From: Catajapyx aquilonaris
Taxonomy: Eukaryota
DNA length: 44,697 nt
Direction of reading: 5' to 3'
Assembly: GCA_000934665.2 (NCBI GenBank)
Contig: JYFJ02003230.1
Coordinates: forward strand, 1-44,697
Notes under the pieces: generated by a model
Databases searched by the model: none
The model's input: the letters and a program-made list of their open reading frames with translations, nothing else
Told to the model about the DNA's origin: nothing
In this document: piece by piece, positions 10,063 to 38,880 of the stretch
How the letters are laid out: every line of letters begins with the position of its first letter
How positions within the stretch are numbered: position 1 is the stretch's first letter
Program-made: the position numbers and the translations under genes

Positions 10063-10113
10063 CTAATCAAACAGAAACTTCAGTATTTCAACATTTCTGC
10101 AATCTTTCCAAGA
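10063..10113 (-). pseudogene. 3'-terminal remnant of a minus-strand MATH-BTB gene
   Basis: Reads SWKDCRNVEILKFLFD*, matching the paralog C-termini. The 3' flank at ~9320-10060 resembles the flanks of copies 1 and 2. Confidence 0.8.
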
Positions 10114-17858: not shown

Positions 17859-18464
17859 CTAAGAGACGTATATTTTGTCCCTTGTGCGGATGTGCTTTCC
17901 GCATGTGGGACACTTCACAAATATGATTTCGCACTGCAGGCAGCACAGGACATGGCCGCAAGGACGAAAAGCGATGCGCAGATCGTTCACCTGGCACACC
18001 TTACACAGATGTGCGTTTGTGATGTTCCTCTCTAGAATAAAAAGTACAGTGTTACTGGTAAAAATAATAGGAAAATGGCACCGGCTTTTCTTAGGCAGAG
18101 AAAATAATGGGTTCGATCCCCATTCCAATCATTTGCAGCTTGTTATTTATTATTGACTTTGTGTGGTGCAACCCGCAGTATAAGCAGTGCATGCAAATGA
18201 CAGGATGGATTATTCAGTAAATAATATCAAAGCATTTCCTCTACCTGCTATGAGGCTTTCCCCGGTTGCTCCATTGCGTGAAGTCACTGTGTCCATATCG
18301 CACATGGTTCCTTGGTCTCTAGTCTCTTTCTGCAGATTCTCTCTAGTCTCTTTCTGCAGATTCTGGCGAGAGTTGTAGCTGCGTTTTGGGCGGCGGACAC
18401 TGGACGTTTCTCCCTTGGAACTGCTGGAGGCAGCACGGCCACGTTTGCACGTCCTATTGGGCAT
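17859..18464 (-). CDS. Small RING-finger protein with an IAP-type C-terminal C3HC4 RING and no BIR; ~130 aa, exons 18464-18245 and 18031-17859
   Basis: CKVC...IAFRPCGHVLCCLQC....KCPTCGKHIRTRDKIYVS*. Phase-1 GT..AG intron joins the two ORFs in frame. An acceptor TTCTTCAG lies just before the ATG. Confidence 0.75.
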
Positions 18465-19332: not shown

Positions 19333-21584
19333 ATGGCTCAACAGGAGATGAATAAGGCGGCCAGCATGTTGGGAAAGAGGAAGCGAGAGGAAGATGAGGA
19401 TGGGGTGAGTTTGATGCAGGATTGTATACTCATGCGGGAAGCAAGTTTCGAAGTCATTTTCTGCGTATATTTGCGTTCGAGAAACATTATTTTCGGATAC
19501 AAATATATGCGGAAAATAGCGGAAAATCTGCTGCCCGCTAATATGAGTATGGGGATGGGTGGGCTGAGCAGGGATTGTGGGCATTTTGCACAGCAATTTT
19601 CAATTGCCCAGTCCCAGTACTTGAGCTAGGCCTAGTGCCGATACTGGGTATGGTACTAGGCCTAGGTCCAAAAGAAAGTACTGGGTGAGGGCTAGCACAA
19701 AGAGCCGAGGCTATATGCCTAGAACAAGGCTATACCTAGTACAGACCTGAGGCTATGCCTCGAACAGAACCAGGGCTATGCCTAGTGCAGAACAAAAGCT
19801 ATATAGGCCTAGAACAAAGAACTGACTCATGAGAGTAGGCCTATTGCCATTATGGGGTACTTGTTTATCGGCTTTATTGTTTTTATATGAGTGAGCAATG
19901 CTGGATGCAAAATACTTTGATCCGCATTTGAAAATTGATATTCACTCCTTCAGCAAGTAATGCGAACAGCTCAAATTCCTGCGCCTGTATATTATTTTGA
20001 AATAAATCTCCCAATTAATGATATTGCAGGTTTTTTATATGCTCCTTTCTTTTTTCAGGGCGAGATTCTTGCTCATCGTGACCGTTTCCGGGTGACTAAT
20101 GGTGCAGAGTATGTCATCGGGGGCATTTTGGGGAAGGGAGTGTATGGCGAGGTGAGGAGATGCCAGAGGCAGTCAACCAGTGTGTATGCCAACATGCTGG
20201 GTGAAGTGAATGGTCGCTTTGCTGATGTTGTGGCGCTGAAGGTACAAGATGGTCGGAAACGTCTTCAATTTAACAAGGAGGTGGACATGATGACCATGCT
20301 GCAGGATGACGATGGCTTTGATGATGGCTACAACCACAACATCATCAGACTGTTGGACCACTTCATGTACCGAGGCCACTGTTGTATGGTGATGGAGATC
20401 ATGCAAAAGGACTTGTGGACACTCCTGAACGAGCAGCCCGAGCAATGCTTCACGTCAAGGCAGACGTCTGTTGTGGCAAAGCAAATTTTGACTGCCTTGG
20501 ATTGGATGAAGGTAAGTGTGTCGACACATCGACGCCTAAGGATTATATTGTCGTATGTCCACGTTTTAACAATGGACATACGACAATATAATCCTTATGC
20601 GTCGACATTTTGTGCCCCATTGCATTAAATAATATTGCATTAAATAAAATTGCATTAATTAAAACCATTCTTGTTTTAGGACTGGGGCATGATCCATGTG
20701 GATCTGAAACTTGACGATGTTCTGGTGGATGCCTCGGACCCTGACAACTGGAGAGTGAAGGTGGCCGATTTTGGACTGGCTTTTTTTACTGATGAGGTGA
20801 AGAAGTACAAGGGAGTGGACATCCAGCCTTACCCAAATAAGGCCCCAGAAGTATTTCTTGGTAAGTAGGCCTATTAGTTGTCCGGCCCCAATGCACGATT
20901 CATTTTCCTTCAAGATTGTAACATCGCTTTTCTTTTCACAGGCGCAGACATAACCGAGGCCATAGATGTTTGGTCGCTTGGGTGCATGTGCTGCGGCATG
21001 ATCTTCGGAGCAAAGTGCAAAGTGTTCAGCCCGCAGCCGCCACTTGTCACCCTGCACATGTGGAGGGTCCTTTGCGGAGAGATCCCGGAGAAGGTTCTGA
21101 TGCATGGAACTCACACGAAAGACTTCTGCCAGAACATGGGCCAGAATAAGTATGCTCTGAGGCATTACTTCAGCAAGGTATGCTTGTTGCTCTAATTTGA
21201 ACTGTCATAGTCTGCATTCATGTTCGTTTCATTGATTCTAATAAGTAATTTTTTAAAGGGCGACCCCAATGATCGCGCCATTGCTCTCACTCTCCTGACC
21301 AAGGCTGGGATCTTATCCTTTTCGGACAAGGTGGATGAGGACTGTGCAGAGTTTCTGCATGCCTGCCTGGACATGGATCCTGTAAGTACCATTTTCTCAA
21401 TTTATATTGCCAGTCCAGTATTTTTTTTTTAAATAATGGGGTAATGTTCTTTCGTCCCCTAATTGCCAGTCCAGCACAATATGCCACAATGCTAATGGTA
21501 ATTTTTTTTTTCACATTCCAGGATCAGCGTGTAATTCCACGAGATGCCCTTCGCATGAAATTCATCCAAGAAGGCGGAGCCTGA
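19333..21584 (+). CDS. Divergent CMGC (HIPK/DYRK-like) Ser/Thr protein kinase, ~375 aa, 6 exons: 19333-19404, 20059-20511, 20680-20860, 20942-21177, 21259-21381, 21522-21584
   Basis: LGKGVYGEV, VALK, helix-C Glu (FNKEV), IHVDLKLDD, VKVADFG, KAPEVFLG, EAIDVWSLGC, LDMDP-DQR. All five introns are GT-AG and in phase. N-terminal basic motif KRKRE. Confidence 0.88.
19685..19825. repeat. Degenerate minisatellite (~20-30-bp units, core GGCTATATGCCTAGAACA) in kinase intron 1
   Basis: About five imperfect copies visible in tandem. Confidence 0.6.
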
Positions 21585-21905
21585 AGTCTTAAGTTGCATG
21601 GGCTGCAACTTGTTCAATGACACCCTTCACTACCAGAAGGAAGAGAAGACGACATGTGACTGCATGGCTACCCGTGACTCAGGTTGAAGTCTGGTGGACC
21701 TACGAGGACAAGGCCATCGAAGCTATGGCTGCTTCATAACAGTAAGGAATACACTTGTGTAAGACTGGATTTCAAAGTAAGTCAACTTTATTTCGGAATT
21801 GATGATGCAAATCAGGATAGAGAAGGTTTATTTTAATATGTGCTTTTAGCATATATATTTTTATTTCGGAACTTGGGTGCTTATCAGGAAAGAAAATTTC
21901 ACATT

Positions 21906-22277
21906 TGTGTGTGTGTGTGTGATCAGGTCTTGACTAAGGTCTGGGGACGGAAGTCTGTGGTTTTACTGTAGCTGTGGGGACCAGTTCCAATTGTGGGGAC
22001 ATTTGTCGGTCCCCACAGTCTCACACACGCGAAGTGTACCGTTACAGTGGGGACATGTGTAAATTAGTGGGGACATGTCCCCACTATTTTCATTTGTAGG
22101 TTTTCACAAAAGTCCATTTTTCTCAGCCTAGGTTACTTAGGGTAGGGTAGGTTAGGTAGGATAGGTTAGGTTAGGTTAGGTTAGGTTAGGTTAGGTTAGG
22201 TTAGGTTAGGTTAGATCAGTTAACACTCGCAGTGAAAAGTGATCAATGTCCGTCCCCACGCCTTAGTCAAGACAAGA

Positions 22278-22309
<32 letters not shown>
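21906..22309. mobile_element. Non-autonomous inverted-repeat element carrying (TTAGG)n, lying between (TG)n tracts
   Basis: 24-bp IRs at 21928-21951 and 22249-22272 (2 mismatches), repeated GTGGGGAC/GTCCCCAC motifs, 9 perfect TTAGG units at 22166-22210, (TG)n on both sides. Confidence 0.7.
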
Positions 22310-22311
<2 letters not shown>

Positions 22312-23023
22312 TATTGCACATTTTAATTTCGGAACTGGATGGTGTTTATTAGGAAAGAAAGTCTTTATTTTGATATGACCATGCAGCATGTCTATTTGTA
22401 AATAACTGCAGTCATCAGTGTGTGTAGAGTGGATGGTATGACAGGGTCGAATGACTGACTGGATGTAACTGTCTTAAGGAATGAACTTATGTAGATTTTT
22501 TTCAAAGCAGGGCTTCAGTTTGGAACTGTAAGATGTTTATCAGGAAAGAAATTATGCATTTTTATGTGTGGATGTTGTGCATAGTGCATGATAGGATGGA
22601 ATGATTTTATGGGTATGTCTTGATGATTTTCTTTGGGTGTTTTTGTGCACGTAATTCGACTGTGGTGTTATTAACTGTTCTGTTTTGAATGTTTTATGTG
22701 GAAGGATAAAAATCACATTAATTTTTAGCTATGACCATCATGTTAGGGATTAGACAGGTATTGCTTGGGCATGTTTGAGAATATTTGCAGGTCTGTGGGT
22801 GTGTCCACTAGGGCTGATTGGATTCCAACCGAGGGTGATGCACAGCTTATGACATAGCTGGCAGAAGAATGAGCACAGAGACACCTGTTCCCATCCTCTG
22901 CCTATGACCCTGGATGCCATGTTCCATCGTATAATTATTATGATGCCACAAGCCTGCCGTCTTGCTGGCCTGGGCTGTCACATCATTCTGCCAACAATTA
23001 TTCCTCGGCTCATCACCCATATA

Positions 23024-23925
23024 CAGGGTGATCCAACTCTATGGCACCAGTAGTTATTGGAAAAATCGCGCAAGCTGCTTGTTTATAAGCAGGTCGTTGC
23101 TAAGAGATGCTTTCTGGCTCTTTCTGGAGAATCGGGAATAGCACCTGCTGATATTAGGTCCAATGCCCATGTAACAATATTAATGAGGGGGAAAAGGGTC
23201 ACCCGTGGGAAACAGGCCTGTTCTGGTGTTCGCTGGAGGGTTTCACATGAGGTCACTAGCTGCCAAACCAGAGGCCTAATCCGTCGGAACTGGACAGACC
23301 CGGGTGTGTCGATAAATAGGCCTTCTGGTCTGTTCATTGTTGGCCGCTGTTGGCGCAACAGGGACAGGTCAACAGGCAGCGTTGTTTAGTTACCAGTCTT
23401 AGCACCTGCTGATATTAGGTCCAATGCCCATGCATGTACCAATTAATGAGAGAATGCCCAATGCAGACTGTACTGTTAGAACCCTAGAAGCCCTTGGGCG
23501 GCCCTCAAACAGGCCCCCTGAGTAAGGCACGTCCTGGTCCCGACTCTACAAGAACCGTTTATTTACTGGTAACTAAACAACGCTGCCTGTTGACCTGTCT
23601 CAGTTGCGCCAACTGCGGCCAACAATGAACAGACCAGAAGGCCTATTTATTGACACACCCGGGTCTGTCCAGTTCCGACGGATTAGGCCTTTGGTTTGGC
23701 AGCTAGTGACCTCATGTGAAACCCTCCTGCGAACACCAGAACAGGCCTGTTTCCCACTGATGACCCTTTTTTCCCTCATTAATTGTTACATGGGCATTGG
23801 ACCTAATATCAGCAGGTGCTATTCCCGATTCTCCAGAAAGTATCTCTTAGCAACGACCTGCTTATAAACAAGCAGCTTGCTGATATTTCCAATAACTGTT
23901 TGTGCCATAGAGTTGGATCACCCTG
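23024..23925. mobile_element. Foldback-like MITE with ~360-370-bp inverted arms and Tc1/mariner-type ends
   Basis: TA|CAGGGTGATCCAACTCTATGGCAC ... GTGCCATAGAGTTGGATCACCCTG|TA. Arms 23024-23397 and 23567-23925 are near-perfect reverse complements. Confidence 0.85.
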
Positions 23926-25061
23926 TATACAAACCATCCCAGCAGCCAGAGCATCACAGCACCGAAAGCAAAACGGCCCTTTTCAGGGCCAACAGAAGTA
24001 TCTGTTCACAATGCGAACCAGAGCAACACCCACATCATAGTAAACTGCTACCCATCCACCCAGAAGCCTCTTTCCTTCCTTCAAGATTCATTTCAGACCA
24101 GCGCACCATTCAATGGAAAAGGGGACTCCTGTGCCTGCTTGTGGTGCTATAAGATATGACCATTATTCAGCAATCCGAAGATATTGTCATCAATGGAATC
24201 TCCAAATCATTTCTGCACCTGCAGTGGATGACTGGAACATTCATCCTGTAGCCCACTTATTAGCGGGATTGAGCTGCTCCATGTAAGTTGGAAAATGCAT
24301 AAATTGCGTATGCAGGAAACAACATGGTTTCCTATTCGTATCTCAACGTCTGCAATCATTACTGTCGCTACCAATGCCTGACCCTGGAATGGATTGTTTA
24401 AGCTATATTCTACCTTAGTAACATATATGCTAACTTTACTGTTTTGTATGATGAACAGCCAAAGGAGACTTTTGAGCATGGCACATGACCATGCTGATCC
24501 TGGTGTTTACACATACTGGGTCAGATGTCAATACCTTGTTCCTGGAAACTGTGTACTTCCAAAAAGGATTTCATGCATTGATTTGCTATTTTTTGTAGTA
24601 AACATTTTCTAAGCATTAAAATCTTTGTTATTGATATAACCATGAAGAATAACATGGGCACTTGAATGGAGGTAACAAAAAAAAATGCACTTCAATGATG
24701 TCTGGCAGTTACTGTACTTGTACAGCAAAATCAATTTTAATATTCAACCACTGCAAGTGAAGTTGATGCTGTCTTTGGATATTTTGAAATAAGAAGTGCA
24801 TCGTGCACTGGCATTTTGTAAAAAAAAAAAAACCCTGATACAAATGCAAGTCGTTATATAGGGGGGCCTACCACCATCGGTTTTCTAGTATTTCATACTT
24901 TTTCTTCGTTCACCATGCAGGGCAGCAAGGAAAGGGGGGTAAGGATAGGGATTTTTGGGGAGGGGACACAGGGTCAAGTGCAATGGGTCATGTTTGTGGT
25001 AACAAGCGAAAGATATTCCTTTCTAGTAACTCCATGTACACTTTATTTTCACACTGTTATT

Positions 25062-27826
25062 TTATGTCTTGTAATTGATATTCATGAACACAAGTTTCTT
25101 TGTCTCTTCTGCAGTTAACCGACCCCGGTTCTCAAAAACCATGTCTCTGTCCTTAGCAAAAATCTGCTCACTAGGGATGGAAGTGGCCACAATGCCAAGC
25201 TTCTCCCTTGCAATTTTGGCTAGATGAGGAAATACATGTCTGTGGGTCTGCCACCACTTAAATGGGTCCTGGTCCAGATCCAGCACTGCCTCCTCCATGT
25301 ACCTGAAATACACCAAATACCAAATAAAACTAGTAGTAATTGGCAAAACATTTCTTTTAATAAAATCAAGAGTACACATGCTGCAGAAGGAAGGTTGGCA
25401 CCATCTGAGGCCTCACCAATCAGTGCACAGCAGGTGCGTGACATATCCTAGATGGCAAAATCTGGTCCTTAATTGAACGGCAGGCTCTTAGCAGACACTA
25501 TACACATCACTTTTTAACAGTAGCCACATGCCTGTTTGTCCAGATTTTGCCATCTAGGTGATATCACACACTTGCTATGTGCTGATTGGTCAGGCCCTGG
25601 ATGGTGCTACCTTTCCTTCCATATCAACTTTACTTATAATGTTCACCAAAATTACACTCACCCTTCAAGCTCAGCTCTAGCAACCATTTCAGGTGGAAAT
25701 CCTGTCTTGGCCACCAACTGCTTTGACTGGATCTGTGCCCATGCAGACAATGAACCAGATGGCTGATTTTCCTCATCTCGAGTCATAGCCTCTTGATGTG
25801 CTACCATAATGATTAACTGTTGACGCACCTTTGCTGCCTCTGCCTCGCTAGGAAATGCAAACCCCTTGAACCGCGGATCAAGGAATGTGGCTAATGCCAT
25901 TGTCTCAGCCACATCAGGACTGCCACTCATTGATTTCAATCCACTCTCCAACACTGCTATCATAGCTCGAGGTACCTGCTCATACTGACGCTTCTTCAGT
26001 TCTTCAGTGACTGATAGTAAGCCCTGTGTCAGAACCATTGTTTGTGATCCCAGGATGTATTGCTCAGTGCACAATTGATTTATTAGCTCCTCAAAAGGTA
26101 GCAGCACTTCTATCAGTTCACGACACTCTTTCCACTCTAGCTCTGTCAGACATGGTATGTCGCTGCTAAGTGAAGCAGTAGTGACCTTAATTGCTTGTTC
26201 CAGTTCAACAAAACGTTTAAACATGGCAAATACCACATCCCAACGAGGCTCAGGTGCATCAAGGAGTTCGTTAGGTGATGGTTCTTGTGCTATCAAGAGT
26301 GCCGAGGTTGCAACTGCATCATTTTTAAACCACAAAACGACGTTACGTACTCTTGAGCGGAGCCCTTCTGCTTCTTGTAAAGCTGTCTGGAGCAGCAGAT
26401 TCAAGGAGCGTCCATAACATGGAAACTGTGGCCATTGTAATCCACATATTGATGAATCCTTTGGATCACCATCATCACCAGTTACAACTACTGTAACATT
26501 ATCAGTTATTCCCCAGCACGAGGTAATTTGTGTGATTATTTCACTCACTTCATTACGCCCAATTTCAGTACATTCCAGCATTACACTGTGAAACTGCATC
26601 GACTCTGTAACAAAATGAGCTGCTACACTGATGAAATTCACATTGGCAATTGATGCCCAAAAATCTGTTGTTAGGCAGACAGTAGCAGCTTCATTCATTT
26701 TCTCATGCGCCTTACGTAATGCCAATCTGTAATTCGACTGGAGTGTGACATGATCAAGGGCGTCAATCACTGGGAGGTCAAAGAGTGGATTGAGGGCATC
26801 AACAAAGTTTATAAAGGAAGAACTATCCACCAAACCAAGGGAATGGTATGACTTGTAAAACAGTTGCACCAGTGCATCATATACACGGCGTTCCTGTTTC
26901 AAAGTGAATCGATCTTTTGCAGTGAGTGTGGCCAGATCAACTGTACCTTCTAGAATTCCTGGATGCATCAACTTGAGGTGATGTTTAAGGTTGGAAATAG
27001 TAGTTCGGCAAGACATTTCCTTCAAGCAATGGCCACACACAGCATACCCTTTATTGGTTTCACTGTCTGTAAAGTGTTGCCAGACTATGCTTGTACGTTT
27101 ACGTGGATTTGGTCGTTTGGAGACTTTGGTGGTGCCATCTTCTAGATGCATTGTTTTCAAATGCATCTTGAGGTTGGAAACAGTTGTCGCAAAAGAAATC
27201 TCCTGGTGACATATATTGCAAATTGCCTTTCCTTTTTTATCAGGACATGGTGTGAAATCCTTCCAAGCGCTGCTCCATTTTTTACATTGTGATCTAGTTT
27301 GTTTGTGCAAATTTTGACCAGGTTTTTGTACATTTTGCCTTGGGCTTACTTCACTTCCTGCTTTTATTGCTGATTTGACAGGAAGCGGTTCTGCAGCATC
27401 AGAATTATCACTAGTAGTCTCCTCAAATTCAACATTCTCAATCTCAGCATTAGTCACACTGGTTCTCCTCTCCAAATTTTCTGAGTTGGCTGAAGCTTCG
27501 AACACCCAAATGGATTCTTCATCTCCCGAAATCTTTGGCTTTGGGGTACGTTTAGCTCGACGGATTGCCAGTGGTAAGTCCTCCCTGATGCCAGATGTGA
27601 ACTCCTTTCCTGCAGATGTGGGCCCCACACTTGTACTTGTGGTATCCGGCCCTGTAGACATGGCCTCTGTCGCTGTAGACGAGGGCTTGGTCACCGTAGA
27701 TGTGGGATCTGCAACCTTAGATCTGGCCTCCGACACTGCAGGTACGATCTTCGACCTTTTCTTTGGAGGCATATTTGCTTGCTTCAGAGATGAATTGGTA
27801 CGGTATGGTTTTTTCCTCGGTGGCAT
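25062..27826 (-). CDS. ZBED-like protein derived from a hAT transposase (2 BED fingers, RNase-H-like core, hAT dimerisation domain), ~801 aa, exons 27826-25662 and 25302-25062
   Basis: BED fingers W..F...C..C......NLK.HL...H twice. LTTDFW, FLDPRFK and DPFKWW...FPHLAKIA...ATSIPSEQIF motifs. Phase-2 intron GG|GTGAGT...TTTCAG|G. Acceptor TTACAG 3 nt before the ATG. AATAAA just after the stop. Confidence 0.88.
25387..25619. repeat. ~80-bp imperfect inverted repeat (MITE-like) inside the ZBED intron
   Basis: GAAGGAAGGTTGGCACCATC...CTAGATGGCAAAATCTGG (25387-25465) pairs with CCAGATTTTGCCATCTAG...GATGGTGCTACCTTTCCTTC (25540-25619). Confidence 0.75.
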
Positions 27827-28819
27827 AACCTGTAAGAAACCATCAAATCCCAAATGTTGTCTTTATTTGCAATGCATTTCAGCAGCCAGTTTTGATATGA
27901 TTCCACAAAATTTTCATTTTAGCTTCAGTTGTTGATGCACTAAGATGTGAAATGCACATATTTTCAGCAGTCACAAACACACTGTAACAGGAAATGTAAA
28001 GTCATGTCTTAACCTTACTCTGAAAACTACCTCTAATCAGCTACCCTGATTCTGATGGTCTCCACATGATCATTACAATGTACAACACTAGTTGGACCCA
28101 TTGCCATTTTTTTTTTTTTTTTTTGCATACAGTACATGTGACATTAATGCTAATTTTTTGTCCAACTCTCAGTTCAGTGAATTTGTGAAACAACATTTAA
28201 TGCAGTATCAATTCTGCTATTCACAGGGTTTTCCTTGCTGGGGACTGGAAAATGCTGCTTGTTTCTGCATTACACAGGTTCTGCTATACTGGACAAAAAA
28301 AAACATATCTTGCTGTAAGAACCATAGTGTAAGTGAGGGAGATAAAATATGCTTTTCAAAAATTCAGTGTTGGATATAAAATGATCACTCAGAAATTTAC
28401 TCAGTTGAGTTGTTACCTGACCTACAAAGTACCCACACCGCGGTCTGGATCCAGACCGCGATGCAATTTTGTCCGGACTGCGATGATATACATGACAGTT
28501 TGAAATAGTATTAGAAATTACTAATTCACGATTTTTTGAAAAAAAGTGATACCAATTTCATCAAATACACACCCATTCAAATCTCCCACATTCACATAAG
28601 CTCGTGTGTCCTTGAACCCCCCAAAAACCGCCCTGTATGGCTTCTTCACCTTGTGCTATTGAAATCCCCCCCCCCCCTATAACAATTTAGGTCAACGCAA
28701 CATCGTGATGTGACAGTGTGTCCGCCACAGCAATCAGGGGCCAGTCACATCATTTGGGAATGCTACAGCAGTGACAATGGCTGTGGAAGCACAATGCAAT
28801 TGTTTCATTCCTGCAGGTC

Positions 28820-29062
28820 AACTTGCCATTGACGTCATCGTTTTGTTTACTAATTCCTAGTTGACAGAAATCTGCTGAATGCACCCCTGGAACCACTCCC
28901 TTTCAACTTTTCCATGGAGAGTCACTCATGCAACAATGGGAGTAATTTTTACTCCCATTATGTTACCTATACAGACAAGTTGAAAAGTGTGGGGTTTGCA
29001 AATTCGGCAGATTTCTGTTGACTAGGAATTAGTAAACAAAACGGTGATGTCAATGGCAAGTT
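28820..29062. mobile_element. MITE-like element with ~60-bp inverted repeats
   Basis: AACTTGCCATTGACGTCATCGTTTTGTTTACTAATTCCTAG... pairs with ...CTAGGAATTAGTAAACAAAACGGTGATGTCAATGGCAAGTT. Confidence 0.7.
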
Positions 29063-29094
29063 AGCATAGCCTCCCTATGTCGTCTGTAGTAGTT

Positions 29095-29297
29095 ACGACT
29101 GTCTTTGTGTGTAGCTTGTTGCTACCCAATCCAGGTGTCCAATTATTCCCTGGTGCTCAAATGTAGCAGTTTCAATATGATAGGGCAGCATCTGGGGACT
29201 GGAGCACAACAAGCTCCAAAAAAAATAACAGCTTCGAGGGAAATGTCGCGTAACTATCAAGTAAGTCTCAAGTGACCTGCATTATTGGAACACCCTG
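29095..29297. mobile_element. Partial copy of the 9689-9923 MITE family
   Basis: Shares CTTGTTG...ATCCAGGTG and GCACAACAAGCT...AATAACAGCTT with that element. Ends TTGGAACACCCTG|TA. Confidence 0.6.
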
Positions 29298-29439
29298 TAT
29301 ACAGTACAGTGAGAAATCAATCTGCATTTACATGTGCGCGATGTCATCGCCGAGATTGTTTGGAGCAAAAGTAATAATACGGTTACTCGGACGATGACAT
29401 CCAGTGATCACATCGCTCACATGTAAATGCACCTTGACA

Positions 29440-29631
29440 CAGTTGACTGCGGATATGACAGTCTCGTGTATAACAGACTTACTGTTATAACAGACTCGAA
29501 AGACCAATCCAGGCATACTGCCCTTCCATCTACATGGCTTTAGTATTCGGCTATAACAGACCTTGGTTATAACAGACTGATTTATTCCGTGGTGCCACCC
29601 TTGAAGTCTGTTATATCCAGATTCAACTGTA
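29440..29631. mobile_element. pogo/mariner-like MITE fragment with repeated TATAACAGAC
   Basis: Four direct and one inverted TATAACAGAC. Terminus GATTCAACTG|TA. Confidence 0.5.
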
Positions 29632-29695
29632 CATGAAACTGCTGGTACTGCTAAAATAAAACAAGGTAGACAAACGATTAATTGTGCATCGATAT

Positions 29696-30020
29696 ACTCA
29701 CCAGTGTGTTACACTCGACTTGGCAGTCTACACCAGCAATAAAGGGTACTGCGCTGCAGCCAGCTGCAAACCCTGGAAGTAAATAGGATGTGAGTAAAGG
29801 TGGTTCATGATTCCAGTGGCAGGCACCAGCGTACGTACAATTATTCGAGACACACACAACAAGAACAAGTGGCAAATGTAACAAGACTCCACGGGGCGCG
29901 TCCGAATGAACTGTGACGTCACTTGGTCGACAGAGGCGCTCAAATGTTACGTAATTAAGTCGCCAGATGGCTCTGCATGTAATAAGGACGGGTTTATCCG
30001 TGGTGCTCACAGATGGCGGG
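29696..30020 (-). promoter_or_regulatory. Shared promoter/5'UTR cassette, copy F, upstream of the ZBED-like gene
   Basis: Acceptor TTTACTTCCAG (29773-29775), exon 29702-29772, donor GTGAGT 29696-29701. GCGTCCGAATGAACTGTGACGTCACTT and AGATGGCTCTGCATGTAA are shared with copy I. Confidence 0.65.
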
Positions 30021-30309
30021 GTGATCGCGAGTCACCCAAAAATTTTGTGCTGCCTTCCAGGCTGGACAACTCGAAAACAAAAATCCAGAAGCGACTATTC
30101 CATCAACTGAAATTGATCTGCCTACTTTTTTGAGCAGGAAAATACCCTGTAGTTGAGAGGTGGATGCTTAAATAATATTATGAAACAACTGCTGTAATAA
30201 GTGGAAGAATCAGATTGGCCCCCAGAGAGGATGAATCTGACAGTGAGTCCGGCGGAATCAGGCGGAATACACTGGAAGCCATAAAGAAAATATTATTCCT
30301 CCCTCTGAT

Positions 30310-30395
30310 ATACTCACAGCTCTACACCGAATTCACTGGACAACGACTATTGTCCTTCCAGTCACCAGCGAGGGTCCAGTCCCGCTGCTGGCCTT
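30310..30395 (-). repeat. Partial cassette relic, copy G (donor plus exon only)
   Basis: ATACTCAC...TTCCAGTCACCAGC.AGGG resembles cassette exons K and I. Confidence 0.45.
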
Positions 30396-30884
30396 ACCAA
30401 AAGAAGAAAAAATTACCGACGGACATGCCAAACGATACATTTTATTCAATTAGCCATTAAGAAAATATTTCAATCTTACATTAATTTCAATCGTTCAGCC
30501 TGCCAGTGTGCAAAGTCTTTTAAAAGTGTTTTCAATATGAACATAAATTGTGGCAATATTGTGAAATCACAAATCTGGATATGATGTAAACAACTGTAAC
30601 TAAAAATGATAAACGCAGCATGGTCTTCACAATCATTAATCAATATTTATAACTGGCACAATTGTGTGGGCTTCAGTGGACAAATCAACAAATAAGGATT
30701 ACATATAAATCACGTCAAAATCAAATAATCCCATAATATTTAGTAAGTAAAGAAAAACTCAAGAACTTCAACATTGTGCAATTTTTCCAAGAGGTACAGT
30801 ACACCCCTTGAGTGAGTCATGCAACATCACACAAAAGTAGGAATCATATCATGCACAAGCCAAGGAACACCGCTGAAATCATAG

Positions 30885-31913
30885 CTACATCAAACTTTCC
30901 TGAACATCAAACAGATCCAAAAGAACCTTCAAAACATCTACATCATCACATTCTTTCCAAGACTTAGACTCTTTCACCTCCTTCACATTGGACGTAACAA
31001 ATTTCAAGCACATATCCTTCAGCACTGGTGTGTTGTACAATGTGGCACACTTCAAAAGGTGCAGTACATTTTCTACAGTCACAAATTTGACCAGATGACA
31101 TTCGCACATGGACTTCAGCCGAAGAACCTGATACTTATCAGCAGCTGCCAACAATTCCAGAGTTAATTCATCAGTCATGCTTGCTGGAATTTGATCAGAG
31201 TACATGAAGTGTATGAGGCCTCGCACCACTTCAGGCTTCAAGTCCTTGATAATGACCTTGCCTGTCCTTTTTTCGTCAGTGTCATGCTCAAACATGGCTG
31301 CAAACACTGGGCTTCGAACGCAAAGAATAAACTTGTGCACTGGAATCTCTGACCCATTTACCACCAATGCCACATCCTTACTCAAAGTTGACTGCAAAGC
31401 ATTCTGCACATCTTCAGATAATTGAGGGCCACTAACCTCAGTACTCACTTTCACTTCCTCATGTTTTCTCTCCAAAAGGACCTCTCCTTCACAAATCAAG
31501 GTAAGGGTATCATTAGGAAGGAGGTCAGATGCCGACCTTGCCAACTCTTGGATGGAAATAAATTTAGAATAGCCCCAACCGTCGGGCCAACTATGATACA
31601 CCTTAACAAATGGGCCAATACTATAATCATTGTTGGTGGCACTCTTAATAGAGAATTTCCATGATGCTGTGACATCATCACCATATTCATCAGGAAGGTA
31701 GGCGAGGAAAAGTGACAGAAAACTTCTACATTCCTCACTATTGCCTTTGGGATGAAGCGTCATCACCCACATTCTTGGGGTAGGTCCCCCAGTCGTAAAT
31801 GCTTCGGAGGTAATTGTCTTCTCCTCTGCAAATGAGTTATATTTCTCAATAGTCCACTTGAAGCAGAATGGTCGAGTATGTCGACTCAAGACAATGTGTT
31901 GGGCATCCGACAT
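30885..31913 (-). CDS. SPOP-like MATH-BTB protein copy 6 (342 aa, intact)
   Basis: Complete MATH (FLSLFL, DGWGYSKF) and BTB (VHKFILCVRSPVFAAMFEH, LLAAADKYQVLRLKSMCE). Confidence 0.93.
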   Translation of the reverse strand: MSDAQHIVLSRHTRPFCFKWTIEKYNSFAEEKTITSEAFTTGGPTPRMWVMTLHPKGNSEECRSFLSLFLAYLPDEYGDDVTASWKFSIKSATNNDYSIGPFVKVYHSWPDGWGYSKFISIQELARSASDLLPNDTLTLICEGEVLLERKHEEVKVSTEVSGPQLSEDVQNALQSTLSKDVALVVNGSEIPVHKFILCVRSPVFAAMFEHDTDEKRTGKVIIKDLKPEVVRGLIHFMYSDQIPASMTDELTLELLAAADKYQVLRLKSMCECHLVKFVTVENVLHLLKCATLYNTPVLKDMCLKFVTSNVKEVKESKSWKECDDVDVLKVLLDLFDVQESLM

Positions 31914-32489
31914 TTCTCACTTGCTGAGCTATAGGAGGAAGGATCATGATGAGTTAGAAAAATGTGGTCGGAAAGTGTGCATATAATTTCGATACATGTG
32001 CGAGTACAACACACTGTAATATTCTGTAATTGAAAGCAATACACCGTAATACATACATGTAAACCTTGCCTTTTGGATTAGCCTTTTCATGTATTTGAAG
32101 CAAATATCATGTTCTACGAGGTTCATGCAAGTGTGCTGTGCATCATACCTCACTACAATGCCAGCATAGGGTATAGCCACCAGATCATGACAAATAAAAA
32201 CTGGTTGACTTGGACTTACTTGTACATTCGCTTAAAGAATTTCCTTTCGACATAAAGCGAAGAAATTAGCCTCCAACAGATGTGCTGCCTCCCCCTGATG
32301 CAATGACTCGCACTCCCCTAGCTAGCACCTCCATTGGAGGCTAATTTCTTCGCCTCATGTGGAAAGGAAATCCTTCAACCAACTGTACACCGGCACATAC
32401 CGTAAATCTTCTGAACAAATCAGTGATTGTAATTTCTTGTTTTACGTGCCATACGCTGCAGGTCACAACTTGTCCGTACCAGGAATACG

Positions 32490-32750
32490 TCCGGTCCTGC
32501 TGCTGCCAACCTGTGGAAGTAAAAGTGGATGTCAGTAAACTGGTCATGAACTTGTCGTATTCCAGTTCACTGTACCTTCACCTCATGGTACGGTACGAAC
32601 ACTTCAAGACACAAACACATGCAACAGAAAACTAGGCCTGTGGTCACGTAATAAACAAGCATGTCCGAATTCACAGGCTTGCAGTTGGGACATTGCCCAT
32701 TCGAGGCTCTCATAAACTGATTTGTTATTCGATCACTATAGATGGCTGTG
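32490..32750 (-). promoter_or_regulatory. Shared cassette, copy H (for copy 6)
   Basis: CCTGCTGCTGCC..GGAAGTAAAA..GGATG..TGGTCATGAAC..ATTCCAGT.CACTGTACCTTCAC, plus TAGATGGCT at ~32739. Confidence 0.6.
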
Positions 32751-33009
32751 TGTGGATGAAATGCTTGAAAAACCTTTGATCATAACTATAAATGCAAAAA
32801 AAAAAAAAAAAAAAAAAAACTTCATTTCCTTAATCAAATTAGCAGTTACAACTTTCCATATGAGTTCGTATTTACTCGTATAATGAGCAAATTAATACTA
32901 CCCGAGATGAATTCACATTCTCAGGGGATATATTGGAACAAACAAAACAATAATCTGCATAACATACAGTAGGTAGCCTACACTATTAGGTACAACTTTC
33001 ATGTCCATA

Positions 33010-33518
33010 TAAATAACATTTCTGTGGCAAAATTATATGGGAAAAACAGAAGACTGGTAATGAACAAAAAATAGGAATACCTGCGCTACACGAACATCGC
33101 ATCTGAATCATATTGTACTACACTCTACACGCAGTGCTTCCCAAACTTGGGGGGCCATGAACATAATTTTTGGGAGCAGGGTAACAAATAATTTTTAAAA
33201 TTTTGTAAAAATTATTTGTTACCCTGCTCCCAAAAATATATCTCCTGAAAAATATGGCTGTAACACCAATAAGCAAACCCAGGTGAAAGTCTCGTTCTTG
33301 TATTGCACCAAAGGTATTGCACTACCGAGTTTGAGTGGATTTATCACCCATGAGTGCAAGCTCCAGGACCCATTTCCTTGACATAGATCCACCAGTCGTA
33401 AATATTAGGGATGTAATTTTATCCTCCAGTACTAATGCATATTATATTTTTCTATAATCCACTTGAAGTAGAATGGCCTAGTTGGTTGAGTCCAGACCAT
33501 TTGTTGGACGTCAGACAT
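33010..33518 (-). pseudogene. Collapsed MATH-BTB pseudogene (copy 7): 5' ~170 nt of CDS plus 3' flank, body missing
   Basis: ATG 33518 reads MSDVQQMVWTQPTRPFYFKWIIEKYN, then a 2-bp insertion, then ...KITSLIFTTGGSMSRKWVLEL. 33010-33110 is the reverse complement of the copy-4 3' flank (12100-12200). Confidence 0.75.
33132..33240. mobile_element. hAT-type MITE fragment with an internal palindrome
   Basis: Begins CAGTGCTTCCCAAACT, a typical hAT/Charlie-like terminus. TTTTTGGGAGCAGGGTAACAAATAATTTTTA pairs with TAAAAATTATTTGTTACCCTGCTCCCAAAAA. Confidence 0.5.
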
Positions 33519-33910
33519 TTCTTTGTTGATCAGAAGGAAGAAAGATTATCATGATGCGATTAAGATATTTCTTCCAAGTGCAGAAATTAAGAAAGCCACG
33601 TTCCTGCCCAAGTGTTAACAACTCCAACAGCACGGTGGGGAATATTCTGTGATGGATTTTTCCCTGAAGTAGGCCTATTGCTTGCACATTGCCATTTGCT
33701 GATTCTATAATTTTATGCATACAGGACTGGAGTATGGCCTCCTACATGGCATATATTATAGAGTGGTGATAGAGGTAATGTGTTCTATGGTTAAGGGGCG
33801 GTTGCACCAAGCGTGGTATATGATAAACCAGCCGTTATTTAGGAAAATCCGTTAGGGCATGTTAAACGGTCACCATGTAGAGCAGTTGAGTGTAAGGCTT
33901 TACAGACCTA

Positions 33911-34132
33911 GGCCTGAATCTTCGACGTCTCGTGCAAACCTGCGGGAGGAGCTCGAGAGGGGAGTTTAACAGGGTGCAGCCAGTTAGAGTAAAAAATCAT
34001 CACATTTTAGAGTAACAAAATGAAGTACTCCTGACGTTCTTTCCCAGTCAGGGATTAACGCCATTGGAAAAGTTTCTCCAGAAGATTACGGCCCCTCCCG
34101 CAGGTTTGCACGAGACGTCGAAGATTCAGGCC
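33911..34132. mobile_element. MITE with ~38-bp perfect terminal inverted repeats (possibly PIF/Harbinger-like)
   Basis: GGCCTGAATCTTCGACGTCTCGTGCAAACCTGCGGGAG pairs with CTCCCGCAGGTTTGCACGAGACGTCGAAGATTCAGGCC. Confidence 0.8.
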
Positions 34133-34416
34133 CTATATTCTACAATCCCCAGGTAGCCTGACTGGATAGGTACGTTTTCAGGTACATTGCGTATTGTTTG
34201 CTTAATTCCGTGGCATCTTATCCGCCCGGCCAGCTTCAAAACATCATGGTCCTTGGCGCAATCTGGCTTGGGAGCCCCATAACGCATAATGTACAATGAT
34301 GTTGGAGTAAGAATGTCAGTGCGACACGCTGTTCACGTTGTGTGCGGACATCCCGATTCAGTGCTGTAGGCTTGGGCATGCCGTACTGTACTGTATGGCT
34401 GTTAACATGTAATGAT

Positions 34417-34755
34417 ACTCACCGGCGGACAATAACCAGAGCCACTGCTGTGTCCTTTCAGTGGTCAGCAATCAGGGTGCTCCAGTCCTTCTGCTGCCAC
34501 CCTGGAAGTAGAGAGGATGTGAGTAACCAGGTCATGAATTTCAAGTACACTGTACCTTCAACCTCTGTACGTAGAAGACGAGCCATACCAAAAAGACACG
34601 TGCAGAGGAACACTAGGCCTGGTGACGCAATTGGCGGCGTCCGAATGAACTGTGACGTCACTTCGGGCTCAAACGTCATGTTCATTCGTCACTAGATGGC
34701 TCTGCATGTAAAAAGGCAGTTGTAATAATTACAGCTGTCGTTCAGAGATGGCGGA
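34417..34755 (-). promoter_or_regulatory. Shared cassette, copy I (for pseudogene copy 7)
   Basis: Donor 34417-34422, exon 34423-34501, acceptor 34502-34504. TGACGTCA at ~34653 and CACTAGATGGC at 34690-34700. Confidence 0.65.
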
Positions 34756-35869
34756 AGCAACCGCACTTGACAATTTTGGCTGGCTGACCCGCGCATTATT
34801 CGAATATGATATCAAATATTTCATGCAGAAATATTTATTGCAGTAAGAACTCCTCAACTATCCCCCTCACTATACTGTACCGACCTGTCACCCTGTAGTG
34901 ACTTTAACATTTTTGGTGATTTGAATGTATAGCTTTCTGTGGATTCCAATACCAATACCAGGTGGATGATAAAGTGAAGTCCTTGGGTTGTGATTGGAAC
35001 CATAACTCAAGGACTTTCTACTGTATTACCTCACTTAAAACAGCATGCCGGTGTAGTCCAGGTCGACCAGTTTTTAGAAATAATATATGGCGGCTACACC
35101 GGCATGCCGGTCTATTATGCTGGTATGAGGTGAGGTTTTCAGGGTTTTCACTTGCATTATCCTTTCAGAACATGATACAACATTGGCATGAAATCGCTAC
35201 TGGAAGAAAAAAAAACACACATTATCAAAGTACCATACTGAGCAGTATTTGCTTTAAATAATAGTTAGTAAAATAATCTGTATATGCATTGAGGCTACTG
35301 GTGTGAATTTAGCCCCTCTAACTCTGATGATGACAATGAAGTTGTGTGAATGCTGTGGATGTGCACTCAGTTAAGCTCGTTTAAAAAATCTTCATAAGGT
35401 CCTATATAGTTACTTGACAAGAATCATTGATGGTTCGACTGGCTCTGAGGAACTTTATTTCTGCCCCCGGCAAAGCCCTGCTTTCCCTCATTTTGTGACT
35501 GATGGTCTCATAATGGCCTAATGGTTTTCCCACAATTCTCTCCCGTAACTGCATCTGCATGGCTGCCTTATCATGGATTACAGGCAAATATCACGTTCTG
35601 AAAAGGTCATGTAAGTGCAACTCATAAGTACATCTATCTAACTTATTAGAACGAAATGCTGGTGTAGCCACCAGATCATGCATTATTTTCCAAAAACTGG
35701 CCAACCTGGACTACTTGTAGTCTGGTACAGTACACCAGCATAACGATTACATGAGGTAATACTGTAAATGGTTTGAACAAATTGGTGACTCTAATTATGT
35801 TTTACATTCCATACATTACACACAGCAGATCACTACTTGTAGTTCCAGCCACCAGCAATACAGGTGGTC

Positions 35870-36030
35870 CAGTCAGGTCCGGTCCTGCGACTGCTGCCAC
35901 CCTGGAAGTAAATAGGGCATGTGAATAAGCTGGTCATACTACTCATAATCTATTACAGTGCACTGTACCATACAGGGAACACAGCAAAACACACCAAAAA
36001 AATAACATGTGCAAATGACACTAGGCCTTG
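35870..36030 (-). repeat. Orphan cassette, copy J, with no associated CDS
   Basis: CTGCTGCCACCCTGGAAGTAAA...TGGTCAT...CAGTGCACTGTACC...CACTAGGCCT. 35665-35718 also matches the copy-6 intron at 32174-32224. Confidence 0.6.
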
Positions 36031-36917
36031 ACACCTTATTGTGACACAATAGTATGTTAGTTAATCAACAGGCTTATGTATTGCCCCACGTGGCATTTTG
36101 GCTGAAAATATTTTCTCATCATTCGAAAGCAAACAAAAAATCTTTTTTAGTCTCTCTTTTCTTGCCTTGCAACAATAAACAGCATTATGATATTATCATG
36201 TAATAAAGAAAGTGACATTAGTTTGGCTAGTGGGTGTCACACTGATTGCGTGATGGTAATGAACCACTGTACACTGCAGAGTACAAAAATATTATCATAA
36301 CACTTTCGTGACACACTACAAAAATTGTTAAAACCGGTAACAAAGGAATGAAATTGTATCAACTGGCGACCACTTCATTAGGTATCAAAACTGCACAGGG
36401 TGATGTGAAAAAATAAAAAATCAAGTGTAGAAGAAAACGCAAAAATAGAGCCCAATACTTTGTGCTGTCTAGACTGGAGTTTGCGGTCAGACCAAGGGTG
36501 ACAAATCCATCAATTCTTCCCAAACTACTGGGTCTATCAATTTGTGTTCATAAGTATATCCTCTACTGTACAGTACGCACTGTACCTCATATGTGTTCAG
36601 TGGTCCTGATATTATCTCCAGCTTGATACGTAGTGAGCTGCAATCAGAGCAATGGAGCTTTTGGGTCTGGCTGAAATGCGGACTACACAAAGTTGGGGAA
36701 AATAAAAGTGAGAGAGCTGGTTGAGGGAATGGGAAAGGGAGGGGCTGAGAAGAGACAAATTGTAAAATATAGATTAGTTTGTGACATTTGGCAATAAGAT
36801 GTATGTCAGGAAATAAAAGTAGAAACATTTATTTCATTTCGCACGTTTGAAATTTTGACATTCATGTTACAGTATTTTTATTCCGCGTATAAATTATCTT
36901 TAAGTCCAAAAATCTGC

Positions 36918-37934
36918 TTACAGATCCAAAAGACACTTCAACACGTCCACATCAACACATGCTTTCCACGACTGAGACTCCTTCACCTTCTTTAAGTTGA
37001 CTCGGACAAATTTCACACATGCTTCTGTCAGATTAGGTGAGTCATGCATTATGGCCAAATTCAGAATGTCTAGTACAGTTTCCACAGTTAAACCTTTTGT
37101 AAGGTGAAGCATACACAAGGACTTCAAACGAAGAATCTGATACTTATTAGCAGCTACCAGGAGTTCCTTTGCCATCTCAACCTGCATGTCTGCTGGGGCT
37201 TGATCAGAGTACATGAAGTGGATGAGGCCCTGCACCACTTCAGGCTTCAAGTCCTTGATAACGACCTTGCCTGTCCTTTTCTCTTCAGTCTCATGCTCAA
37301 ACATTGCTGCAAACACTGGGCTTCGAACGCAAAGAATAAACTTGTGCACAGGAAACTTTGACTCATCTGCCACCAATGTCACATCAGTACTCAAAGTTGA
37401 CTGAAATGCATTCTGCACATCTTCAGATATGTGAGGGCCACAAATCTCAGCATGCTCGTTCACATCCTCATGTTTTCTCTCCAAAAGGACCTCTCCTTCA
37501 CAAATCAAGGTAAGGGTATCATTAGGAAGGAGGTCAGATGCCCTCCTTCCCAACTCTTGGATGGAAAAAAATTTAGGATAGCCCCAGCAGCTAGGAGTGT
37601 CGCCGTTTTTTCCCCTGAACACCTTAAGAAATTGGCTACTACTACAATCATTGTTGGTGGCACTCTTAATAGAGAATTTACTTGATGCTGTGACATCACC
37701 ACCATATTCATCAGGAAGGTAGGTGAGGAAAAGTGACAGAAAACTTCTACATTCCTCACTATTGCCTTTGGGATGAAGCACCATCACCCACTTTTTTGGT
37801 TCAGGTCCACCAGAAGTGAATGGTTCAGATGTAATTTTGTTCTCCTCGCCTAACATACTATATTTCTCAATAACCCACTTGAACGAGAATCGTCGAGTTT
37901 GTTGAGCAAATATCCACTGTTGCACATCAGACAT
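36918..37934 (-). CDS. SPOP-like MATH-BTB protein copy 8 (338 aa, intact)
   Basis: Complete MATH (FLSLFL, CWGYPKF) and BTB (VHKFILCVRSPVFAAMFEH, AANKYQILRLKSLC). Confidence 0.93.
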   Translation of the reverse strand: MSDVQQWIFAQQTRRFSFKWVIEKYSMLGEENKITSEPFTSGGPEPKKWVMVLHPKGNSEECRSFLSLFLTYLPDEYGGDVTASSKFSIKSATNNDCSSSQFLKVFRGKNGDTPSCWGYPKFFSIQELGRRASDLLPNDTLTLICEGEVLLERKHEDVNEHAEICGPHISEDVQNAFQSTLSTDVTLVADESKFPVHKFILCVRSPVFAAMFEHETEEKRTGKVVIKDLKPEVVQGLIHFMYSDQAPADMQVEMAKELLVAANKYQILRLKSLCMLHLTKGLTVETVLDILNLAIMHDSPNLTEACVKFVRVNLKKVKESQSWKACVDVDVLKCLLDL

Positions 37935-38022
37935 TTTCTCAGTGGATCAGCTGCAGGAAGAATGATCAAGATGTAATAATTACACAAGTTTATTTATAAA
38001 TCATTTGAAATGCATGAATTAA

Positions 38023-38493
38023 CCCTTAACTACGTAGGTGGAGCCTGAGAGGCTCCAAGCACTATTTAAACGCATGTAACTTTTTCATCGAATTTTATTT
38101 TCCCCTGCCCTTCCGTGACTTTGTCAGACAAACCTTCCTAAGCATGAAAAGGAAAGAAACAAATTTTTAGTCCCTATTGTTTGGTTTAAAAAAATTCGTA
38201 ACGAGGAACAGGTCCCTCCTGGACTCTATACTGGCTCTACCTATGCAGGTGAAGACTGAGCGGCTCAAGCATGATGTAACCTTTTAATTAAGAATTTTTC
38301 CCTGTCGGAATATGCTGACTCAGCGTGTGATTTTTACGTTTTCGGAAGCCTAATGATCTGAACTGCACTTTCTGTATGTGAAAAGTCCAATATAACAATT
38401 TAGTTGATAAGCATAAATTTAAATATACCGTTGGAGCCTCTCAGGCTCCACCTACGTAGTTAAAGGTGTTTCACCCACCTACGTAGTTAAGGG
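38023..38493. mobile_element. piggyBac-type MITE
   Basis: TTAA|CCCTTAACTACGTAGGTGG ... CCACCTACGTAGTTAAGGG|TTAA: TTAA TSD, CCC/GGG ends, subterminal palindrome GGAGCCTGAGAGGCTCC. Confidence 0.85.
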
Positions 38494-38778
38494 TTAAGCA
38501 GGGTGGAGAACTGCACATAAGTCAAAAATATTCCAACAACAATACCATAGTGATTAGGATCTTCTAAATTTTTACTGAGTTGATAGCTTACTTATTGTGA
38601 CACTCAGGCTGGGCTAGAAATATCAGGGGGCTTTCTCATTAACTTCTTGTGATTGTGATGACTAGTATTTTCCACATCAGTTAATCATTCTTTGCTCTTT
38701 ATGCTCCTTAGAGAGCACAATATTCTGAGTCGAGAATAAACAGGTAGCAATCAAATGAACTGAATCCCCTTCCGATAC

Positions 38779-38880
38779 ACTCACCTGTCACCACACCTAT
38801 TTCACCAAATCCCGACTTCTCTTTCCAGTCACCAGCAAGGGCCTGTGCTGCTATACTGCAACCCTGGAAGTAATAAATTG
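38779..38880 (-). promoter_or_regulatory. Shared cassette, copy K (exon only recognisable; for copy 8)
   Basis: Acceptor TTACTTCCAG 38864-38866, exon 38785-38863, donor GTGAGT 38779-38784. Confidence 0.55.

Follow-up and report, generated by a model that had tools for sequence, protein, structure and literature searches.

A hAT-derived ZBED gene spliced to a leader cassette of the MATH-BTB type in Catajapyx aquilonaris

Contig JYFJ02003230.1 of the Catajapyx aquilonaris assembly GCA_000934665.2 was analysed over positions 1 to 44,697, a 44.7-kb window with a G+C content of 42%. The window holds a tandem array of MATH-BTB (SPOP-like) genes with intronless coding sequences (CDSs), each unit of which is headed by a repeated module, and it also holds a gene derived from a hAT transposase, called ZBED here, that lies behind what looks like one more copy of that module (cassette F). 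This arrangement raises the question of whether two unrelated coding sequences use the same kind of front end and, if so, how a transposase-derived gene came to lie behind it. A reading made earlier from the letters alone (the sequence-only reading) had proposed that the front end is common to both, and this is now supported by homology and by a spliced contig. The best overall explanation, to which we give a probability of about 0.7, is that F is an array unit orphaned of its coding sequence and spliced onto the hAT-derived ZBED. Positions are those of the window, and the coordinates of the features are collected in Table 1.

Cassette F and the leader of the ZBED transcript

The repeated module was found upstream of every MATH-BTB coding exon, with ten full copies in the window (A to J, labelled here by the first base of exon 2). 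It starts with a promoter, which is followed by two non-coding exons, a short exon 1 and an exon 2 of ~70-110 nt, separated by a mini-intron of ~65 nt. A first conserved block, AGCCATCT, lies ~200 nt upstream of exon 2 and is followed by a TTGAGCGCCTCT-like block and by a third, GTGA(A/C)..TTCGGACGC, after which comes the short exon 1; the cassette acceptor reads TTACTTCCAG/GG, and exon 2 ends at a GTGAGT donor. With one mismatch or fewer allowed, TTACTTCCAGG occurred 8 times in the window where 0.76 occurrences were expected; each of the eight was a cassette acceptor, that of F among them, while cassettes D and G were missed at this threshold. The block AGCCATCT gave 7 matches against 1.62 expected, five of them 189-237 nt upstream of exon 2 (cassettes A, D, F, G and H) and two (7598 and 25757) unrelated to cassettes. 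Identity among the nine cassettes other than F was 37-79%. The most conserved part, above either exon, was the mini-intron (GGTACAGTGCACTG...TTCATGACC..TTACTCACATCCT..TTACTTCCAG), which may reflect either the demands of splicing so short an intron or the presence of a control element within it.

When F was left out, an nhmmer profile of the nine other cassettes matched positions 29986-29667 (E=1.6e-16, 53.8 bits), and the alignment spanned the promoter blocks through the donor and ~35 nt of the next intron. Cassette F (about 30020-29667, minus strand) is thus a complete but diverged copy of the MATH-BTB front-end module. This profile match and the motif counts agree with the earlier claim that F has the cassette orientation, an intact acceptor and donor, and the upstream motifs, and each feature described there lies at the position given. 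The acceptor of F exon 2 is ttacttccag/GG (AG at 29774-29773) and the donor is CTGG/GTGAGT (GT at 29701-29700); relative to the other cassettes the exon has an 8-nt insertion and a ~25-nt deletion. The nearest relative of F was cassette H at 34.4-34.75 kb, with a 90-nt block 74% identical (E 1e-12) and an identity of 54%, versus 37-50% to the other cassettes. The sequence-only reading had likewise placed F closest to a copy that it called I, which is probably the copy called H here, if the truncated cassette F', described below, was counted. An identical 24-mer around the TGACGTCA palindrome was present in F (29899-29922) and H (34638-34661) only, and so was CCGCCATCT, ~95 nt further upstream (30011-30019 in F and 34746-34754 in H). 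F closes the right-hand sub-array as its final module on the downstream side. Measured from a MATH-BTB stop to the exon 2 that follows it, the spacing is 1113 nt for gene MB8 and F, close to the 1011 nt for MB2 and B and the 1017 nt for MB9 and I, so F sits in the regular register of the array.

A search for sequencing runs that cover 25000-30100 listed none on record as RNA and gave one public run of unrecorded type, X1, in which 42% of the words sampled from that interval occur. Its contigs, from a de Bruijn-graph assembly, were mapped on 21000-40000. Six of 30 depth bins were empty, and each of these was intergenic. Among the nine listed joints, five had CT..AC ends (GT..AG on the minus strand) and lay exactly on predicted exon borders, and the other four lay in repeats and had other ends. 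Since the empty bins are intergenic and the canonical joints fall at exon borders, X1 reads like a transcriptome, and its coverage and joints fit an RNA-derived assembly. One contig (depth 3.4) joins 29839/29772 and 29702/27829, with short sides of 72 and 40 letters that are exon 2 and part of exon 1. Because both joints follow one another in a single contig, the ZBED mRNA carries the two non-coding exons of F as its leader. The depth of a contig cannot rank expression, and the 5' end of this one is a lower bound on exon 1. The splice from 29702 to 27829 had been predicted before any contig was consulted, and it is present here with GT..AG ends in a transcript that includes 29702-29772.

The acceptor used in this contig is the one that had been noticed 3 nt before the ZBED start codon. 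It reads ttcttacag/GTT ATG, with AG at 27831-27830, the exon from 27829 and the ATG at 27826. The leader of F joined to ZBED measures at least 114 nt and contains no ATG, so the ATG of ZBED is the first in the transcript. In cassettes B and D exon 2 begins with GATGG, which creates an upstream ATG, and in cassette C an ATG lies slightly further into exon 2 (by eye from the alignment). With an upstream ATG in B, C and D and none in the leader of F, the cassette copies may differ in translational control. A positive control came from the mRNA contig of the array gene MB8, whose leader runs from H exon 2 through G exon 2 into the coding exon (which begins at 31928); here cassette exons serve as the 5' untranslated region (UTR) of an array gene. 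With H exon 2 in the leader, transcription of MB8 can start at a promoter that lies two kilobases upstream of the cassette belonging to this gene.

No MATH-BTB coding sequence was found behind F, as the sequence-only reading had held. A tblastn search over 21000-30260 with the five intact MATH-BTB proteins of the window gave noise (best E 0.30, inside the ZBED CDS), and a five-protein profile run on the six-frame translation from F to ZBED and downstream to 21000 gave 0 matches at E<=100; the interval 27850-29690, in which a decayed copy might have lain, was covered by these searches. The same reading had seen only miniature inverted-repeat transposable elements (MITEs) between F and ZBED. Inverted-repeat elements are indeed present, but a transposable element (TE) fragment at 29109-29301 is there as well. 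A match between 29109-29238 and 9754-9887 (71%, 140 nt) was considered as a relic of a MATH-BTB 3' flank and was ruled out by its TE ends, TATA(C/G)AGGGTG. The acceptor of ZBED was likewise considered as a relic of a MATH-BTB CDS-exon acceptor, which it resembled in a MAFFT alignment, and this was refuted by profiles: three variants of a MATH-BTB CDS-acceptor profile found 7 of 7 MATH-BTB starts and never that of ZBED, even at E<=100. Judged by these profiles, the acceptor of ZBED is not array-derived.

Two side observations concern mobile elements in or near this intron. Copies of a family with ends TATA(C/G)AGGGTG(A/T/G)TCCAA lie at 23020-23929, 29109-29301 and 9700-9940; one of them folds back over 910 nt, its arms being 92-100% complementary, and the family is covered by X1 contigs with rearranged joints. 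An A-run of ~17 nt on the gene strand (28112-28127, minus) lies inside the intron between F and ZBED and may be the tail of a retroposed element at ~28130-28600, a stretch that X1 contigs cover at 90-95% likeness.

The ZBED gene and its protein

ZBED encodes 801 amino acids in a frame that is intact across its internal intron and has a single terminal stop, with an AATAAA at 25047-25042 after the gene. The N-terminus is disordered, basic and rich in Lys, Pro and Ser. It is followed by two BED zinc fingers (zf-BED PF02892, E=1.3e-20, 2 stretches) and an RNase-H-like hAT core, and the last exon encodes the hAT C-terminal dimerisation domain (Dimer_Tnp_hAT PF05699, E=4.4e-14). Most of the internal intron is filled by a MITE-like inverted-repeat element at 25362-25643, with 104-nt arms that are 75% complementary; minus this element the intron would be a ~77-nt mini-intron, similar in size to that of the cassettes.

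A HMMER search gave 4322 relatives of ZBED, aligned over residues ~180-705, of which the best were 34-36% identical (among 1.84 billion representatives); the best relatives that carry a name were 'ZBED4-like' models of arthropods. A word-based protein search gave a single weak match, and a sequence search of the PDB gave only the BED finger of ZBED1 (E 0.25). ZBED was then compared with 45 relatives, the first 45 of the 150 best matches with lengths of 480-720 amino acids. It keeps 85 of 127 family-conserved columns (67%), the lowest retention of the 46 sequences, while the 45 relatives keep a median of 88% and a minimum of 72%. Residues D388, W390, C470, R528, W529 and E767 are kept. The second catalytic-D column holds G instead, next to a D; the DN..N motif has degenerated, CxxH has become CxxR, and R768 is replaced by Q. 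The residues that we take to be catalytic were assigned from familiar hAT motifs rather than from alignment to a solved structure. No terminal inverted repeats bracketing 25062-27829 were found at a seed of 10 and a length of at least 14, a setting that short or degenerate repeats could escape. The lack of flanking inverted repeats at this setting, the frame that is intact despite an old-looking intronic element, and the low column retention together suggest that ZBED is an immobile and probably domesticated host gene. More tentatively, its product is probably a DNA-binding protein that is no longer an active transposase.

Orphan cassettes and the origin of the arrangement

F is not the only cassette in the window that lacks a MATH-BTB gene of its own. 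Behind cassette I there is no MATH-BTB CDS, and behind cassette H only a fragment of ~65 codons at 33518-33310, so that cassette-only units (I, H and F) are common in the array. A truncated eleventh cassette, F', covers model positions 277-401 only (nhmmer E=5e-13); it retains the body of exon 2, the donor GTGAGT and the first part of intron 2, and is without the acceptor, mini-intron, exon 1 and promoter. F' lies just downstream of the poly(A) signal of MB8 (AATAAA at 30446-30441) and ~250 nt upstream of the promoter of F. Its identity is 48% to F versus 59-65% to A, B, C, H, I and J, and on these values F' is no local duplicate of F but a sequence nearer the array consensus. In G and I the GTGAGT donor has been lost and now reads GTAAAA (32401-32440 and 35800-35830, minus); in G a replacement donor, ACG/GTATGT, ~40 nt further on gives an exon 2 of 110 nt. 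Orphan cassettes thus appear to stay active and splice-competent, their donors taking the next acceptor downstream.

The mechanism that we propose follows this pattern. F would be an array unit that was orphaned of its CDS, as units I and H were, with F' as the stump of a further cassette. The donors of orphans would splice to the next competent acceptor downstream, in the manner of H to G to MB8, and the next usable acceptor behind F would be the one directly before the transposase ORF (open reading frame). A hAT copy would have landed, or would already have lain, downstream of F and so would have been hooked to an array promoter without a protein fusion. The balance of evidence leans towards an array-derived F, since F is in the array register, F' and other decayed units are present, certain features are shared with H only, and the acceptor is of transposon type. 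The sequence-only reading had offered two routes, in which either a SPOP retrocopy captured a duplicate of the promoter and 5' exons of ZBED or a hAT transposase landed in the 5'UTR intron of an array unit; an orphan cassette at the array edge whose donor uses the next acceptor appears to fit at least as well as either. The tree of the ten cassettes (398 of 548 columns) is unrooted and 0 of its 7 inner branches are supported, so these three routes are not rigorously separable.

The first of those routes runs in the opposite direction: the cassette would be the promoter and leader of ZBED itself, a duplicate of it would have been captured by a SPOP retrocopy and then amplified, and F would be ancestral. 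The single-exon CDSs of the array with their acceptor 15 nt before the ATG fit a retrogene that borrowed a promoter and leader, F is among the more divergent cassettes and lies at the array edge beside ZBED, and an unrooted tree is compatible with F as its earliest branch; the rat Rtdpoz retrogene cluster (PMC2724483) is a precedent. However, the end branch of F (0.56) is about as long as those of A, D and E (0.48-0.52) and shorter than that of J (0.82), and the best tree groups F with the adjoining cassettes H, I and G, a grouping that lacks support (37/0 for the F and H pairing). An ancestral F would also need H as the first branch of the array, given the 24-mer and the second motif common to F and H only. 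F' and the two other units without a CDS show that CDS loss is common in the array, and an acceptor directly before the ZBED ORF is the expected cargo of a transposon insertion. On these grounds we consider the ancestral status of F distinctly unlikely.

A functionless by-product is an unlikely reading too. Under it, the orphan promoter would read into a resident and possibly autonomous or decaying hAT element through a cryptic acceptor, with neither domestication nor co-regulation. Arthropod models named 'ZBED4-like', to which the nearest named relatives of ZBED belong, are often transposon copies, and the retention of D388, C470 and E767 and the low depth of the contig (3.4) would suit such an element. 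Yet no terminal inverted repeats were found around ZBED, its 801 codons remain in an open frame and are properly joined across an intron with an old inserted element, its retention of conserved columns is the lowest of the 46 sequences, and its leader is clean of upstream ATGs. That the join between F and ZBED is a chimeric contig, an artefact of assembly, is conceivable for a single contig of a de Bruijn-graph assembly in a repeat-rich region, but this is highly improbable: two consecutive joints of the same contig fall exactly on GT..AG borders that were predicted from the sequence beforehand, these borders lie in unique, non-repeat sequence, and three further introns have canonical joints in the same run.

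Several points weigh against the derivation of ZBED's leader from an orphaned array unit, or against the domestication of ZBED. The join rests on one contig of depth 3.4 from one run of unrecorded type, the stretch between the halves of joint 27827->29700 is marked 'not known', and ZBED may have other transcription starts besides F. Derivation of F from the array is not demonstrated by the cassette tree, with its 0 of 7 supported branches. Because F is just ~50% identical to the other cassettes (37-54%), we only infer that it shares their regulatory output. Catalysis may be possible in ZBED, with D388, W390, C470 and E767 kept and a D beside the second catalytic column, and the age argument from its intronic element assumes that the arms were once identical.

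ZBED might bind the cassettes or the MITE-rich spacers and so regulate the array, or it might work with the adaptors or be turned over by them. That a domesticated ZBED, wired into the promoter module of the MATH-BTB array, in fact acts on that system is very doubtful at present.

The array itself comprises five intact single-exon MATH-BTB ORFs of 313-342 amino acids, with MATH, BTB and SPOP-type BACK domains. MATH_2 and BTB are above the Pfam cut-offs in all five. BACK_BPM_SPOP also matches all five, and its cut-off of 27.4 bits is cleared in MB1 only, with scores of 26.2-27.1 bits in MB2, MB8 and MB9 and 16.8 in MB4. Protein identity among the array genes is 59-72%, and the closest outside relative in a database search was Nematostella SPOP, at 37% identity. 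All of the MATH-BTB CDSs are single-exon, with the acceptor 15 nt before the ATG. Two sub-arrays are separated by a RING-finger exon, a kinase-like gene and ZBED. Comparison of the spacers between units for homology, as a further check on whether F arose in the array register, gave short patches in some units only, and none from the flanks of MB8 or MB9. A 460-aa ORF without a Pfam match (12770-14152, minus) has a broken MATH-BTB copy on one side and cassette E on the other, in the left sub-array, and may belong to a mobile element. An HMG-box ORF of 191 amino acids (43436-44011, minus) matches insect DSP1/HMGB at ~73-75% identity across 59% of its length; like the named relatives of ZBED, this match weakly points to an arthropod lineage.

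Table 1. Coordinates of cassettes, genes, mobile elements and spliced joints in the 44.7-kb window
Feature	Position	Strand	Basis or remark
F promoter-like block	29879..30020	minus	profile alignment to 29986; 90-nt match to 34716-34637; putative promoter activity
F motifs	CCGCCATCT 30019-30011; AGCCATCT 29972-29965; TTACGTAA 29954-29947; TGACGTCA 29921-29914	minus	
F exon 1, non-coding	29839..29878	minus	at least 40 nt covered by contig; donor GT at 29838-29837
F mini-intron, 66 nt, GT..AG	29773..29838	minus	spliced contig and alignments
F exon 2, non-coding, 71 nt, no ATG	29702..29772	minus	contig joints on both sides; cassette alignment
Intron, F exon 2 to ZBED, 1872 nt	27830..29701	minus	joint 27827->29700 (cut +2), GT..AG
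Inverted-repeat elements in F-ZBED intron	28820-29062; 29317-29437; 29564-29619		
TE fragment in F-ZBED intron	29109-29301		TE homology to 9754-9887
ZBED coding exon 1	25662..27829	minus	ORF; contigs at 100% identity (3 records)
ZBED internal intron, 359 nt	25303..25661	minus	joint 25300->25660 (cut +2)
ZBED last coding exon and stop	25062..25302	minus	Dimer_Tnp_hAT; frame continuous across splice
F', truncated cassette	30263..30390	minus	nhmmer
G exon 2, 110 nt	32401..32510	minus	joints 32508->34421 and 31928->32401, one contig
H exon 2	34423..34501	minus	joint 32508->34421 (cut +2), depth 24.1
Canonical X1 joints	29771->29838; 27827->29700; 25300->25660; 31928->32401; 32508->34421		
Cassettes, exon 2 start	A 474, B 3623, C 7858, F 29772, G 32510, H 34501, I 35901, J 38863	minus	
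Cassettes, exon 2 start	D 10975, E 15608	plus	
MB1	1501-2442	minus	intact MATH-BTB ORF
MB2	4634-5644	minus	intact MATH-BTB ORF
MB4	15880-16890	plus	intact MATH-BTB ORF
MB8	ORF 30885-31913; coding exon 30885-31928; ATG at 31913	minus	Pfam MATH_2, BTB, BACK_BPM_SPOP; spliced contig
MB9	36918-37934	minus	intact MATH-BTB ORF
Broken MATH-BTB copy	10100-10609	plus	
Broken MATH-BTB copy	11036-12076	plus	
Broken MATH-BTB copy, ~65 codons	33310-33518	minus	behind cassette H
MATH-BTB C-terminal scrap	10066-10113	minus	
C-terminal RING-finger exon (zf-C3HC4_3)	17859-18128	minus	between two MATH-BTB sub-arrays
Protein-kinase-like gene, multi-exon	19939-21600	plus	between two MATH-BTB sub-arrays

Significance and comparison with known systems

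At this locus a transposase-derived gene appears to have gained expression through a spare promoter-leader module shed by a tandem family, without fusion. The orphaned 5' cassettes of a fast-evolving array of ubiquitin adaptors could repeatedly rewire neighbouring genes in this way. Should ZBED indeed act on the array, which is very doubtful, a TE-derived regulator and the ubiquitin adaptors would form a co-regulated module, and the stackable cassettes (H to G to MB8, and F to ZBED) would amount to a plug-in device by which any downstream ORF with an acceptor could enter the expression programme of the array. If ZBED were conserved and co-regulated with the adaptors, the locus would be an accessible example of how a TE-derived DNA-binding protein is drawn into the programme of a gene family.

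ZBED1 and ZBED4 are domesticated hAT genes. The gene described here is like them in its BED fingers, RNase-H-like core and hAT dimerisation domain, and in being spliced and expressed with no terminal repeats found. Unlike them, it is at most 36% identical to any database protein, and orthology to a vertebrate ZBED is not expected.

The array has its own counterpart in the rat Rtdpoz-T1/T2 cluster (PMC2724483), where MATH-BTB-type coding exons are intronless and stand behind duplicated cassettes of non-coding 5'UTR exons, and where neighbours share upstream exons or a promoter and are co-transcribed in a locus dense in TE relics. Intronless CDSs, cassette 5' exons and exon sharing are common to that TRAF/MATH plus POZ/BTB cluster and to the array in the window. 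In the rat cluster (PMC2724483), pieces of TEs are exonised into UTRs, whereas here a complete transposase-derived ORF forms the downstream coding exon. The likeness to the rodent TDPOZ cluster is convergent, since the lineage is different and the best SPOP match of the array proteins is only 37%. A link between fast-evolving ubiquitin-ligase adaptors and transposase sequence is also known from an F-box gene family, in which a transposase helix-turn-helix domain is reported to be fused into F-box proteins (PMC12062965); in the present case the proteins are separate and only the front-end module is shared.

The closest parallel to the join itself is transposase capture. Such capture builds on a splice acceptor that DNA transposons frequently have immediately before the transposase ORF (Cosby et al., bioRxiv 10.1101/2020.05.07.082677). 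In the KRABINER-type fusions of that study, host exons are spliced to an acceptor before a transposase ORF, and the same is seen at ZBED. Unlike those fusions, ZBED gains only a non-coding leader and a promoter, without a chimeric protein; its host 'gene' would be a tandem-array unit that has lost its CDS, and the transposon origin of the acceptor is putative. By this comparison F and ZBED work like a transposase capture while not being a strict host-transposase fusion, because no host coding sequence is fused. A transposase-derived gene on a spare MATH-BTB leader cassette did not turn up in the literature on these comparison cases, in which no search was aimed at that combination. The pairing of F with ZBED is a clear, though not unprecedented, case of a mobile-element gene joining the front end of a host gene family, and it adds a non-coding route to the transposase capture already known.

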